A stretch of DNA of 64,000 nt from Salinispira sp. (GTDB taxonomy: Bacteria > Spirochaetota > Spirochaetia > DSM-27196 > Salinispiraceae). Of the stretch, positions 24,001 through 27,000 are shown piece by piece (position 1 is the stretch's first letter; the number at the start of each line of letters is the position of its first letter). Position numbers: made by a program. The stretch lies in NCBI GenBank assembly GCA_965226555.1, contig CBDDDG010000001.1, positions 224,001 to 288,000 of the forward strand, in the 5' to 3' direction.

Positions 24001-27000
24001 AAGATATAAAAAATGAGATTGAAAAATTCAAATTATGATGAAGTTTTTGCAAAATGCAAAATTTTCTATTATTATATTTACAAGAAACAGGGGGAGCCAT
24101 GGTACATGAATTTGATGCAGTAATTGTCGGCGCTGGCGGCGCTGGTTTATATGCGGCGCTTGAGGCAAGCGGTTCATCCAAAACAGCTGTTATTTCCAAA
24201 CTCTACCCATCGCGAAGCCATACCGGTGCCGCGCAGGGGGGCATTGGCGCTGCCCTTGGAAACTATGAGGAAGATAAACCTGAATGGCATGCCTTCGATA
24301 CCGTGAAGGGCGGCGATTATCTGGTTGATCAGAAGGCAGCAATGATTCTCGCAAAAGAAGCTGTTCGGGCAGTGTATGATCTGGAAAATAAGGGACTTCC
24401 GTTTTCCCGTACGCCGGACGGTAAAATTGGTCAACGCCGGTTTGGCGGACACACCCGAAACTTTGGAGAGGCGCCTGTTCGAAGATCATGCTACGCCGCA
24501 GACCGAACCGGTCACATGATACTTCAAACCCTCTATCAACAATGCATAAAAAATGATGTTTCATTTTTCGATGAATTTCAGGCTGTTGACCTCATTCTGA
24601 ACGGAAACAGGGTAGCAGGTATCGTTGCCCTCGAACTGAAAACCGGTGAGGTGCATATTTTCCGCGCAAAGGCAGTTCTTTTTGCCACTGGCGGATTCGG
24701 ACGCATCTTCAAAACCACTTCCAACGCTATGGCTAACACCGGAGACGGGCCGGCGCTCATTGCGCGGGCTGGAATCCCCCTCATGGATATGGAATTTTAT
24801 CAATTTCATCCTACCGGCATTTACAAAATGGGCATTCTCATCACAGAAGGCGTTCGCGGTGAAGGCGGAATACTCCGAAACTCCCGAAATGAGCGGTTTA
24901 TGGAACAATACGCCCCAACCCTTTTGGATCTTGCGCCGCGCGACATGGTAAGCCGGGCAATTATGACAGAAATTGCAGCGGGAAGGGGAATTCGAGGTGA
25001 TCGGGCAATTGACGATTTTGTGTATCTTGATGCTACCCACCTCGGGCGGCAGGTCATTGAGGAACGCATTCCCGACATAGCCGACTTCTGCCGGACATAT
25101 CTTGATATTGATCCTGCCGAAAAACCCATGCCCGTCCAGCCCACGGCGCACTATGCCATGGGGGGCATTCCGACAAACATCGATGGACTCGTTACCACCG
25201 GCTCGACTGCTTGGGAGGGGCTTTATGCCGCCGGAGAGGCAGCCTGCGTTAGTGTACACGGAGCAAACCGGCTCGGTACAAACAGCCTCGTCGACTTGGT
25301 CGTGTTCGGCCGGCGCGCCGGTCAGCACATTGCCCGCTACGTCCGGGAATGTGACATGCCCGCCTGGCCGAAGGGAGCCGAAAACGACTTCAAAAAACTA
25401 CTCGCCCGCCTTAAAGACGGAAAAAGCGGAAAACATCCAGGTCCTATCTACACATCCATGCAGGAAAGCATGATGAAGAACGTGGGAGTATATCGAACTG
25501 AAGAAGAAATGAAACAGGCAGCGCGGGACATTCGGGCGCTCAGGGAAGAATACCGCGAACTCCGAATTGAAGATATGTCCGATACCTTCAATTCAGAAAT
25601 TCTCGGCATTCTTGAATTAGGAAATCTCCTTGATCTTAGCCTGATAACGGCCGAAAGCGCGCTTAATCGGAAAGAAAGCAGGGGCGCTCACAGTAGAAAG
25701 GACTATACCGAAAGAAACGATGACGAGTGGCTTAAGCACACTCTTGCCGCTCTCAACGGAAACTCTGTTTCAATTACCTATAAAAATGTGGATACCAGCA
25801 TCTGGGAGCCCAAACCCCGAGTCTATTAAAACTCAATACATTGGAGGACGTATGAAAATAACTCTGAAAATTCAACGATTCAATCCAGCAAAGGATCAGA
25901 AACCCTTCTTTATGGAATATGGCGTTACGGTAAAACCCACCGACCGGATTCTTGATGCAATTATCGATATCAAACGCAACCAGGACGGTTCCCTCGCCTT
26001 CAGGAGAAGCTGTGCTCACGGGGTCTGCGGTTCAGATGCCATGATAATCAATAATAAAGAAGCTCTGGCCTGCAAAACGCTTGTGCAGGATGCGGCAGCT
26101 GATGATGGTGATGTTATTACCCTCCAGCCGCTGAACCACCAGGAGATACAACGGGATCTCATGGTCGACCAGAGCACATTTTTTCAGAAATATCGCGATG
26201 TTCAGCCCTTCTTCATTCCGAGAGATGAAGATCTGAAAGGAGAACAGGAACAATTTCAATCGGTAGAAGAGCGTGAATTCTTCGATGATTCAACAAAGTG
26301 TATTCTGTGTTCAGCATGCTATTCGGCATGCCCTGTTCTCGATAAAAATCCCGATTTTATTGGACCCGCTGCTATCGTTCAGGCCGTCCGTTTTGTCAAC
26401 GACAGCCGCGATAAAGGACTTGAACCGCGCCTTGCTGTTCTTGACAGCCCAAACGGTGTCTGGCCATGTGAGAACAACTTTCATTGTACAGAAGTCTGCC
26501 CGCGGGAAATTCCGGTAACAAAGCTCATTAATCTTACGAAGCGTCAAATTAAGGCATATCGAAAAGAACGGGGAGAAGAAATACACGATGATGGACAGGA
26601 TACACTGCAGAAGGCAGCCAAGAAAGCGGACAGGCAGGCAAAGAAGGCAGCAAAGTAAATGAATATTCACGAATATCAGGGAAAACAACTGTTTCAGTCC
26701 TACGGAATTGATACCGGCCCGCAGTATCTGGTGAAAACACCTGAAGAAGCCCGTGAAGCATGGGAAAAATTCGGGGGCACGGTTGTGGTGAAGGCTCAGG
26801 TGCTTTCCGGCGGCAGGGGAAAGGCAGGCGGTGTAAAAATTGCCCGAACTGCCGATGAAACCGAAGCTGCTGCGAGGGAAATTTTTGCTCTGAACATCAA
26901 AGGATTTCCTGTAGAGAAAATTCTCATTGTTCCGGCATCGGAAATAAAACAGGAATTTTACCTCGGCATTACCATGGATCGTTTTAACAAGTACCTCGTT

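Follow-up and report, generated by a model that had tools for sequence, protein, structure and literature searches.

An anchor-less, probably soluble succinate dehydrogenase in Salinispira with a remodelled quinone face and a possible link to rubredoxin

Judged from its sequence, the succinate dehydrogenase SdhAB encoded in an sdhAB-sucCD operon of Salinispira sp. belongs to a lineage related to class A complex II. The initial annotation had proposed that this complex II is soluble, has no anchor and works without quinone, a view that our analysis supports and to which the loss of quinone-side residues in SdhB adds sequence evidence. As an exchange partner in place of quinone we tentatively put forward rubredoxin, which, as a carrier shared with the NqrBCDEF complex, appears better supported than a direct pairing of SdhAB with Nqr. 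Succinate oxidation is normally tied to quinone. If rubredoxin served both complexes, a full oxidative Krebs cycle and ion pumping could run on soluble iron proteins alone, and a pathway of oxygen defence would come to conserve energy. Three small purified proteins and a cultured relative, Salinispira pacifica, put the idea within reach of experiment; even if the rubredoxin reading is wrong, the SdhB signature lets annotators recognise truly anchor-less complex II by sequence.

The Krebs-cycle operon and its catalytic dimer

The window, that is the whole stretch of 64,000 nucleotides analysed here (contig CBDDDG010000001.1, positions 224,001 to 288,000), contains the following genes, with coordinates counted from its first letter:

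22788..24038, + strand: DNA methyltransferase gene, in the upstream slot expected for sdhCD; outside the system
24099..25829, + strand: sdhA, flavoprotein, 576 aa; GGGGGAG ahead of the ATG
25852..26658, + strand: sdhB, iron-sulfur subunit, 268 aa; GGAGG ahead of the ATG
26659..27798, + strand: sucC, succinyl-CoA synthetase beta subunit; abuts sdhB directly (TAA-ATG)
27865..28731, + strand: sucD, succinyl-CoA synthetase alpha subunit
60976..64000, − strand: remainder of the Krebs-cycle operon (gltA 60976-62106, lpd 62139-63686 and the end of sucB)

These coordinates confirm the earlier statement that sdhA and sdhB run into sucCD without an anchor gene. The operon sdhAB-sucCD-sucAB-lpd-gltA was found, full or ended by the end of the locus or contig, in 15 of 15 long loci; gltA-lpd-sucB, joined in relatives to sdhAB-sucCD-sucA, is split off in this genome. 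The cycle genes present here comprise gltA, aconitase, a monomeric isocitrate dehydrogenase, sucAB, a fumC-type gene and malate dehydrogenase. These genes mark the operon as one of the oxidative Krebs cycle, as do the sdhA_forward match of SdhA and, in G306 and G340, a separate anchored FrdC-FrdA locus; the full oxidative cycle is kept in this genome. As the genome is 93.5% complete (26 contigs), absences reported for it are provisional.

SdhA exceeds the cut-off of TIGR01816 (sdhA_forward) with 812 versus 727 bits and contains the covalent-FAD residue His41, Gln46 and the catalytic residues His237, Thr249-Glu250, Arg281, His351 and Arg391, roles that we presume to be those of E. coli SdhA, which bears out the claim that its active-site and covalent-FAD motifs are intact. 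In SdhB, the ligands of the [2Fe-2S] (C54, C59, D62, C74), [4Fe-4S] (C150, C153, C156, C216) and [3Fe-4S] clusters (C160, C206, C212) are invariant across 77 clade sequences. The pair combines a covalent-FAD flavoprotein with an iron-sulfur subunit holding three cluster sites, as expected of a complex II catalytic dimer.

The nearest solved chains are 6LUM_A for SdhA (E 3e-208) and 6LUM_B for SdhB (E 1.5e-60), from the class A complex II Sdh2 of Mycobacterium smegmatis, with which the FAD site and the three-cluster ligand set are shared. In contrast to 6LUM, SdhC/SdhD and a heme pathway were not found in this genome, CPVYW is changed to CPVLD and CRTTF to CENNF in SdhB, and the C-terminal helix is basic and extended. 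SdhA is far nearer to 6LUM than to 7D6V, the class F complex II with a Rieske anchor, and a motif scan detected no Rieske motif among this genome's called genes. Class E complex II (SdhABEF) and TfrAB likewise lack an integral cytochrome b anchor, but here the CCG domain is missing, the TfrB model aligns at positions 3-236 of 488 only, and the third cluster of SdhB retains the C-x5-C [3Fe-4S] pattern. The clade with this SdhAB also takes in a Desulfobacterota symbiont and a KSB3 bacterium.

Membrane anchor, quinone and the SdhB surface

That the Sdh_cyt anchor is missing across the order, as annotated before, was reproduced with PF01127, which was above cut-off in 0 of 99 order genomes and in 7 of 14 control genomes; in the nearest anchored relative, our positive control, SdhC scored 66.5 and SdhD 38.0 bits against a cut-off of 25.8. 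Among 18 other clade genomes PF01127 gave two matches, both adjoining a separate FrdA, and G306 and G340 retain a separate anchored FrdC-FrdA locus. Eight real anchors compared with the six-frame ORFs of this genome yielded no match below E 0.05. FrdC (PF02300) was found in none of five genomes, and one phmmer query for FrdD in this genome was likewise negative; the CCG domain matched in 2 of 5 genomes, within oxidoreductases of 865-883 aa. A plasmid search returned lone SdhB-like genes and no usable anchors, and a contig scan with a single SdhB query gave one locus. Since an adjacent anchor is also missing from the sister group (0/23 loci), the lack of a neighbouring anchor is not diagnostic alone. 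Two neighbouring genes were discarded as candidates: a gene for a 6-helix protein, present upstream in 4 of 61 clade loci, encodes a TauE exporter in both copies scanned, and a 90-aa membrane gene that some relatives carry close to sdhA, and that might have been an anchor or a partner, has no copy in this genome by tblastn.

The earlier description of the host as quinone-free is supported for this genome only, in which a search for the UbiA family found no gene. UbiA-family genes occur in all the single-contig relatives (4 of 4); three scanned copies (G095/G097), best resembling MenA models, fall below cut-off. ALAD was not found in this genome (0 of 5 genomes searched), and cytochrome bd, not found here, is present in 3 of 20 genomes.

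Alignment of SdhB to porcine 3ABV_B and comparison with sister sequences point to three altered segments:

26341..26346, + strand: SdhB Asp164-Lys165 for porcine Trp172-Trp173, quinone side (alignment to 3ABV_B)
26470..26478, + strand: SdhB Glu207-Asn208-Asn209 for porcine His216-Thr217-Ile218, beside the [3Fe-4S] cluster
26503..26580, + strand: basic C-terminal helix of SdhB, in place of the hydrophobic end of sister sequences

We take porcine Trp172/173, His216 and Ile218 to be quinone-side residues. Trp within SdhB 162-166 occurs in 0 of 82 clade versus 29 of 29 sister sequences; at 207-209 the clade consensus is E-N-H against R-T-I/T/V in the sister group, and Ile at 209 is missing from all 82 clade sequences. 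Over the 25 residues past the last Cys, the mean net charge is +5.4 in the 82 clade sequences compared with +0.45 in the 29 sister sequences. Ser158, Ile226, Asn227 and Lys230 are invariant on the SdhB surface clade-wide, which, together with the conserved cluster sites, suggests a specific partner. We infer that the basic helix is a candidate docking face for an acidic carrier; it could bind ferredoxin, flavodoxin or anionic lipid equally well.

NqrBCDEF, rubredoxin and the proposed electron route

The nqrBCDEF operon is real in this genome (C21:129703-134002), and the claim that it lacks both NqrA and the N-terminal arm of NqrB was verified: NqrA (TIGR01936) was over cut-off in 0 of 99 genomes (the top score, 175 bits against 321, came from a single fragmented genome), and NqrB aligns to its profile only from position 114-117. 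The FMN-attachment Thr in B and C, the Cys pairs in D and E and the [2Fe-2S]/FAD sites of NqrF are present, and ApbE occurs in 5 of 5 genomes. Passages of PMC4148951 and PMC5924567 describe the same five-gene order without NqrA in Thermotoga thermarum, Pseudothermotoga lettingae and Clostridium ultunense and term the acceptor of NqrA-less Nqr unknown. In contrast to these systems, the relatives of our genome add a conserved sixth gene of 150 aa (20/20 loci), and their nqr genes are further linked to the pyruvate dehydrogenase operon and a rubredoxin gene. As tblastn finds no copy of the sixth gene in this genome, it cannot be required here. This genome also holds a degenerate rnfCDGEA cluster (C10:170449-174633), whose RnfC would be an alternative acceptor.

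The initial annotation had cast SdhAB as the missing acceptor, which would dock on NqrB in the place of NqrA and form a sodium-pumping NADH:fumarate reductase. Both modules occur in most order genomes (clade SdhB listed in 84 of 99, strong NqrB in 86 of 99), NqrA and the NqrB arm are both gone, electron transfer from NADH to fumarate is downhill, and fumarate supports growth of S. pacifica according to passages of PMC4511686. However, each module occurs alone: across 401 phylum genomes, NqrF is found without this SdhA in 40 of 52 and, by a single NqrF query, this SdhA without NqrF in 9 of 21. The former include the single-contig, 99-100% complete genomes G030, G128, G192 and G420, with a full nqr operon and no SdhB in G030, and the latter include G237 and G284 (2 and 4 contigs, 94%). 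In addition, all four single-contig genomes that contain sdh and nqr keep the two operons 0.76-2.4 Mb from each other, the C-terminal surfaces of both proteins of the proposed pair are basic, and nqr is tied rather to the pyruvate dehydrogenase operon, the sixth gene and rubredoxin. A direct or obligate pairing is thus not supported, and we consider such docking highly improbable. Of the genomes previously cited as having Nqr without SdhA (G008, G009, G037), all three contained clade SdhB, with the reservation that the handle numbering may differ. A weaker link could run from NADH through Nqr to rubredoxin as a soluble shuttle and on to fumarate.

Two rubredoxins and one flavodiiron protein are encoded in this genome, and order-wide the two families occur in 91 and 95 of 99 genomes, respectively. 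In relatives a rubredoxin gene sits inside the Krebs-cycle cluster, where it directly follows a TPR gene linked to fumC (50 of 73 genomes, 6 of 10 families). Its distance from sdhB is at most 30 kb in 16 of 19 genomes having both on one contig, and that from nqrB at most 15 kb in 38 of 83; in 8 of 30 phylum loci, all from one family, it comes straight after nqrF and the sixth gene. The 16 fetched loci were selected for nearby rubredoxin. In this genome's own family no rubredoxin gene sits in the Krebs-cycle cluster (0/8), nor does one in families f5, f9 and f11. As many anaerobes have rubredoxins and flavodiiron proteins, co-occurrence is weak evidence, and related genomes do not count as independent cases. 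The fumC-linked TPR protein was rejected as an obligatory SdhAB adaptor, being missing from a 12-genome genus that has SdhB; it is also absent from an Sdh-less family (0/4).

Partners other than rubredoxin and the flavodiiron protein are few in this genome: motif scans detected no ferredoxin or hydrogenase, POR (pyruvate:ferredoxin oxidoreductase), Etf and Flavodoxin_5 were not found in it, and none of its seven Pyr_redox_2 matches is a Nox/rubredoxin-reductase-type flavoprotein. POR is present in 17 of 19 other clade genomes searched, and the partner may be a different one in POR-bearing genomes, the Desulfobacterota symbiont and the KSB3 bacterium. The potentials of succinate (+30 mV; passages of PMC3570798) and prokaryotic rubredoxins (-100 to +50 mV; passages of PMC10130062) overlap. 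The rubredoxin carries a net charge of -12, with Ala44, and a complex prediction with SdhB (1-243) gave a score of 0.09 (mark 0.32), which is no evidence either way.

Anaerobes possess an oxygen-scavenging chain of NADH:rubredoxin oxidoreductase, rubredoxin and flavodiiron protein. The latter two are shared here, whereas a soluble rubredoxin reductase was not found in this genome, and in our proposal a membrane Nqr-type complex and SdhAB would take the donor role. Acidic rubredoxin would dock at the [3Fe-4S] end of SdhB and hand electrons to the flavodiiron protein, whose reduction of O2 would draw the near-isoenergetic oxidation of succinate forward. Electrons from NADH would enter the same pool through NqrBCDEF, making Sdh and Nqr parallel clients of one carrier, not one complex, and without O2 the pool could reverse and reduce fumarate. 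The complete quinone- and heme-free chain, in which NADH from pyruvate and 2-oxoglutarate dehydrogenases passes through sodium-pumping NqrBCDEF to rubredoxin, SdhAB delivers to the same carrier, the flavodiiron protein acts as terminal oxidase and fumarate as anoxic drain, is conceivable and rather doubtful. Passages of PMC4511686 report that S. pacifica reduced O2-containing medium without an oxidase, catalase or annotated NADH:rubredoxin reductase, that 5-10% O2 neither raised yield nor altered products, that succinate did not support growth and that the listed glucose products exclude succinate. As O2 left yield and products unchanged and succinate gave no growth, little flux is expected through any such chain in S. 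pacifica.

Other electron routes and published anchor-less pairs

A low-potential carrier (ferredoxin, flavodoxin or an NADH-oxidising module) might instead supply SdhAB, which would then act as a soluble fumarate reductase, as in the precedent of Pelotomaculum SDH2 (passages of PMC10308238). A divergent Flavodoxin_5 gene near sdhA in several relatives (L034, L040, L041, L047), POR in most clade genomes tested and a basic helix that fits any acidic carrier agree with this, but sdhAB is intact in a genome in which ferredoxin, POR, Etf and Flavodoxin_5 were not found, the operon includes the irreversible 2-oxoglutarate dehydrogenase and citrate synthase, and the glucose products listed for S. 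pacifica do not include succinate (passages of PMC4511686), so that we consider it unlikely. The flavodoxin of those relatives was rejected as the partner here, as the Flavodoxin_5 family search of this genome was empty. Similarly unlikely is a membrane link through an unrecognised anchor, e.g. degenerate RnfD/E/A-like proteins, or through the basic helix on lipid, with scavenged quinone. MenA-like genes in single-contig relatives, cytochrome bd in 3 of 20 genomes, sister loci equally devoid of an adjacent anchor, the degenerate rnfCDGEA cluster and 74 small membrane proteins in this genome, not all assigned, would accommodate it; the quinone-side Trp and Ile are nevertheless gone from all 82 clade sequences, neither UbiA family, ALAD nor bd oxidase was found here, and known anchor families are missing while controls score.

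Alternatively, SdhAB might have no dedicated partner and serve biosynthesis only, turning over slowly as its flavin or its exposed [3Fe-4S] cluster gives electrons directly to O2 or to acceptors without specificity. We regard this as improbable, since the three conserved cluster sites and the new clade-wide surface suggest a specific partner and direct O2 reduction by such an enzyme would yield reactive oxygen species. In its favour, a flavoprotein of the glycerol-3-phosphate oxidase type is also used in this genome, O2 leaves yield and products of S. pacifica unaffected (passages of PMC4511686), and a Syntrophobacter sdhAB pair located among clustered Krebs-cycle genes has been interpreted as biosynthetic (passages of PMC3570798).

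The designation of SdhAB as a seventh class of complex II proved overstated. A 2023 survey by Karavaeva and Sousa reportedly may list anchor-less cases. Anchor-less, cytoplasmic SdhAB pairs have been published as SDH2 of Pelotomaculum thermopropionicum and sdhAB-1 and sdhAB-2 of Syntrophobacter fumaroxidans (passages of PMC10308238 and PMC3570798), and passages of a complex II review mention fully soluble homologs (PMC10238741), while those of PMC3578206, PMC2702500, PMC5109826, PMC13066397 and PMC12663545 contain nothing on this SdhAB clade. According to the same passages on the syntrophs, these pairs consist, as here, of a flavoprotein and an iron-sulfur subunit with no transmembrane gene. 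Unlike the Salinispira enzyme, SDH2 is accompanied by a neighbouring FrhB-like partner and has been interpreted as a fumarate reductase fed by NADH (PMC10308238), sdhAB-1 lacks two clusters (PMC3570798), and both hosts possess menaquinone and an anchored SDH (PMC10308238, PMC3570798). Syntrophobacter sdhAB-2 is clustered with aconitase, citrate synthase and fumarase (PMC3570798), a Krebs-cycle setting like that of the present operon.

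Architecture of the sdhAB operon and sequence of SdhB

The genes of the operon and its flanks are arranged in the window as follows:

22788-24038, C-terminally extended DNA methyltransferase gene, immediately 5' of sdhA
24099-25829, + strand, sdhA
25852-26658, + strand, sdhB
26659-27798, + strand, sucC
27865-28731, + strand, sucD
29810-32771, ankyrin-repeat lipoprotein-like gene and fibronectin/BspA-like repeat gene, downstream of the operon

SdhAB is an intact two-subunit enzyme encoded in an oxidative operon. In 15/15 long loci from the host's order, sdhAB continues into sucCD and then, up to the end of the locus or contig, into sucAB-lpd-gltA. 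SdhA passed the curated model sdhA_forward (812 vs 727 bits), has its closest solved relative in M. smegmatis Sdh2 (PDB 6LUM), and retains its catalytic motifs as well as His41, which we take to be the FAD attachment residue, the roles of the motifs being assumed likewise. SdhB is 80% identical to that of a Salinispira sp. record, which probably places the host close to that genus. The studied genome (2.98 Mb, 26 contigs, completeness 93.5%, contamination 6.7%) also encodes citrate synthase, aconitase, a presumed monomeric isocitrate dehydrogenase assigned by motif, 2-oxoglutarate dehydrogenase, a fumC-type lyase and malate dehydrogenase. The latter is a single type-2-like enzyme (C14:68348-69379) instead of the tandem pair of this family that many relatives carry at their Krebs-cycle cluster (L035:5935-7793, L036, L044 and others). 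A paralog of the methyltransferase (L032:8137-9108) adjoins the nqr operon, and repeat genes like those downstream are frequent in host-associated bacteria.

We delimited the anchor-less lineage (hereafter the clade) by SdhB identity of at least 53% and a sister group by 42-53%. All SdhB cluster ligands are invariant across 77 aligned clade sequences. Among distinct SdhB sequences of the fetched loci, with 13 more distant ones excluded, a Trp within positions 162-166 occurred in 0/82 clade vs 29/29 sister sequences. In the alignment their porcine counterparts are Trp172/Trp173, and those of positions 207-209 are His216-Thr217-Ile218, residues that we take to line the quinone site; an R-T-I motif of sister sequences is replaced by E-N-H in the clade. 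Net charge over the 25 residues past the last Cys averages +5.4 in the clade (+3 to +9) and +0.45 in the sister group. Judged from these alignments, the SdhB sequence records the loss of the anchor, with a remodelled electron-exit face. In an SdhA tree, 40 sampled clade sequences of 93 formed one branch (FastTree support 0.947), a grouping that is partly circular because membership had been set by identity. The clade extends to other spirochaete classes and, by source names (two named of ten), to a Desulfobacterota symbiont and a KSB3 bacterium. An aldo/keto-reductase-like gene, read by eye, lies immediately 3' of sdhA in three genomes from other classes (L152, L158, L165). Many genomes of the order also carry a second anchor-less dehydrogenase module, made up of a short GlpA-like flavoprotein and a further SdhB-like Fe-S protein that likewise ends in a basic helix, and no GlpB/GlpC or anchor lies alongside (L049:9217-11156, L050:9059-10998).

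Search for a membrane anchor

Passages of PMC10238741 define complex II classes A-F by their anchor and mention fully soluble homologs; anchor-less SdhAB pairs are described in parts of PMC3570798 and PMC5947623 for S. fumaroxidans. The initial annotation had reported that SdhAB lacks an anchor, and this was borne out: PF01127 exceeded the cut-off in 0/99 genomes of the order, compared with 7/14 controls. Of 18 clade genomes of other classes, two gave a match, each adjoining a separate FrdA gene, compared with 3/3 positive-control spirochaetes. With the cut-off at 25.8 bits, SdhC and SdhD of the nearest anchored relative found (locus L281) scored 66.5 and 38.0, so an ordinary anchor ortholog would be detected.

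A hidden membrane link of SdhAB nevertheless has to be weighed. None of 23 sister-group loci has an adjacent anchor (L281 lies outside the filter), and gene order by itself is thus no proof of anchor loss; in this group (SdhA identity 56-63%; metagenome loci L230, L235, L253, L255 and others), which keeps the quinone-side Trp, the anchor is presumably encoded at another locus. Eight real anchors searched against 16,567 six-frame ORFs of the studied genome gave nothing under E 0.05, no CCG domains were found in that genome, FrdC was absent from the 5/5 genomes searched, and no membrane gene interrupts the sdhAB-sucCD operon in 15/15 long order loci. We consider such a link unlikely. Of the 61 clade loci that extend 900 bases or more upstream, counted by locus so that a genome may recur, four have a co-oriented upstream membrane gene, and the two of these four that were scanned are TauE exporters.

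The Nqr-like complex

The nqrBCDEF operon lies outside the window, at C21:129703-134002 of the studied genome. As initially annotated, it lacks NqrA, which exceeded the cut-off in 0/99 order genomes, and its NqrB lacks the N-terminal arm, leaving the first 90 or so residues of the NqrB profile uncovered. The complex retains its flavin and Cys motifs, ApbE is present, and the last 45 residues of NqrB carry a charge of +9, resembling the basic end of SdhB. Passages of PMC4148951 and PMC5924567 call the acceptor of NqrA-less Nqr unknown.

The annotation's bolder proposal, that SdhAB is this missing acceptor, is not supported. Among 401 sampled genomes of the phylum, clade SdhA was found in 21, NqrF in 52 and both in 12. 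NqrF occurred without clade SdhA in 40, including four single-contig genomes (G030, G128, G192, G420), and clade SdhA without NqrF in nine, including G237 and G284 (single-protein query, E 1e-60). Within the order, clade SdhB is missing from 11/86 NqrB-bearing genomes, of which four have a completeness of 93% or more, and the two operons lie 0.76-2.4 Mb apart in 4/4 single-contig genomes carrying both. The Nqr-like operon is real, yet is no dedicated partner of SdhAB, and a direct complex of the two, against which their similarly basic ends also speak, is highly improbable. The observations of anchor-less SdhAB and NqrA-less Nqr stand, and their interpretation is supported in part, without the dedicated pairing.

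The nqr genes are divergent from pyruvate dehydrogenase genes, which are present in 18/21 loci. In 20/20 relatives, nqrF is followed by a conserved, Cys-free gene of 150 aa (e.g. L088:13828-14277) that belongs to no Pfam family and falls into unnamed Atlas clusters (DUF7919 lead at 13%); the studied genome lacks it and has a short tandem repeat immediately past nqrF. The best NqrA-model match of the order (G049:C313:233-1558), from a fragmented genome, is nearly full-length and scores 175 bits, which falls short of the cut-off; it could represent a genuine, divergent NqrA or a contaminant. The studied genome further contains a degenerate rnfCDGEA cluster without rnfB (C10:170449-174633; L107:10450-14634). 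Two [4Fe-4S] motifs are retained in its RnfC, which passes TIGR01945, but no flavin motif is seen in the G-like gene, nor the usual Cys pairs in the A- and E-like genes. Weak matches to RnfC are found throughout the order, and NqrB could have the degenerate RnfC as an alternative acceptor.

Remaining carriers and the case for rubredoxin

The genome had been described as free of heme, quinone and oxidase genes. For the studied genome (93.5% complete) this agrees with UbiA-family, ALAD and cytochrome bd searches, which gave no match, but as a blanket claim it fails for relatives: UbiA-family genes occur in 4/4 single-contig relatives, some MenA-like though below cut-off, and cytochrome bd in 3/20 genomes. 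According to passages of PMC4511686, S. pacifica lacks lipoquinone, cytochrome and terminal oxidase genes, possesses a complete citric acid cycle and a five-gene Nqr-like complex, and actively reduces O2-containing medium. The carriers located in the studied genome are:

C21:124299, rubredoxin
C10:130713, rubredoxin
C21:311875, flavodiiron protein

Searches there for POR, Etf and Flavodoxin_5, and a motif scan for ferredoxin and hydrogenase, found none. The Fe-S electron-transfer proteins detected are SdhB, NqrF, the degenerate RnfC and a probable QueG; seven Pyr_redox_2 matches comprise three lipoamide dehydrogenases (one split into two matches) and thioredoxin-reductase-like (by eye), MerA-like and YpdA-like proteins. 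Against this inventory we regard it as unlikely that SdhAB is a fumarate reductase fed by a low-potential carrier, even if passages of PMC10308238 interpret the anchor-less SDH2 of P. thermopropionicum as an NADH-fed cytoplasmic fumarate reductase. That SdhAB is a partnerless slow oxidase appears slightly less probable still.

Gene context favours rubredoxin as the partner of SdhAB, as a lead and not as proof, because the kin are non-independent and the synteny is possibly inherited. A rubredoxin gene directly follows a conserved TPR gene in 50/73 TPR-bearing genomes and 6/10 families (0/8 in the studied genome's family). The TPR gene (224 aa, invariant C-terminal Trp) lies 3' of fumC (studied genome C1:99901-101948; L114:7902-9949), and is missing from the Sdh-less family and one Sdh-bearing genus. 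Rubredoxin lies within 30 kb of sdhB in 16/80 genomes overall and in 16/19 with both on the same contig; in the 16 loci fetched for this proximity, the co-oriented fumC-to-rubredoxin run sits inside the Krebs-cycle cluster in 12 and is interrupted by other genes in four. It lies within 15 kb of nqrB in 38/83 genomes, the studied one included, and comes immediately after nqrF and the sixth gene in one family from another class (8/9 of that family's loci, 8/30 inspected). Rubredoxin 1 has a net charge of -12, and 16/18 aligned rubredoxins have Ala44, which we take to mark the higher-potential type. Parts of PMC10130062 give rubredoxin potentials of -100 to +50 mV and link position 44 to potential; succinate/fumarate is placed at +30 mV (PMC3570798, in part).

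We tentatively favour, at somewhat below even chances, a chain in which electrons would pass from succinate via FAD and three clusters to rubredoxin, flavodiiron protein and O2. NqrBCDEF would supply the same rubredoxin pool from NADH, and without O2 the pool might reduce fumarate. Counting against this proposal, passages of PMC4511686 report that yield and products of S. pacifica were unaltered by O2 and that it did not grow on succinate, and the Krebs-cluster rubredoxin is absent from four families; strict anaerobes of the clade may use another carrier. In the largely open-access literature searched (main texts), we found no account of this clade or of succinate- or Nqr-to-rubredoxin transfer. 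The present analysis adds an SdhB signature with counts, a rubredoxin gene within the Krebs-cycle cluster and a reduced genome with few alternative acceptors left.

Mostly in families without Krebs-cluster rubredoxin, a Flavodoxin_5 gene and a small membrane gene (90-100 aa) lie divergent near sdhA in several relatives (L034:15355-16133, L041:12460-13299, L047:5810-6570). Two Nqr-less genomes with clade SdhA (L288:955-2845, L289:297-2187) encode a fusion of rubredoxin with a flavin-reductase domain, and flavodiiron- and rubrerythrin-like genes come next.
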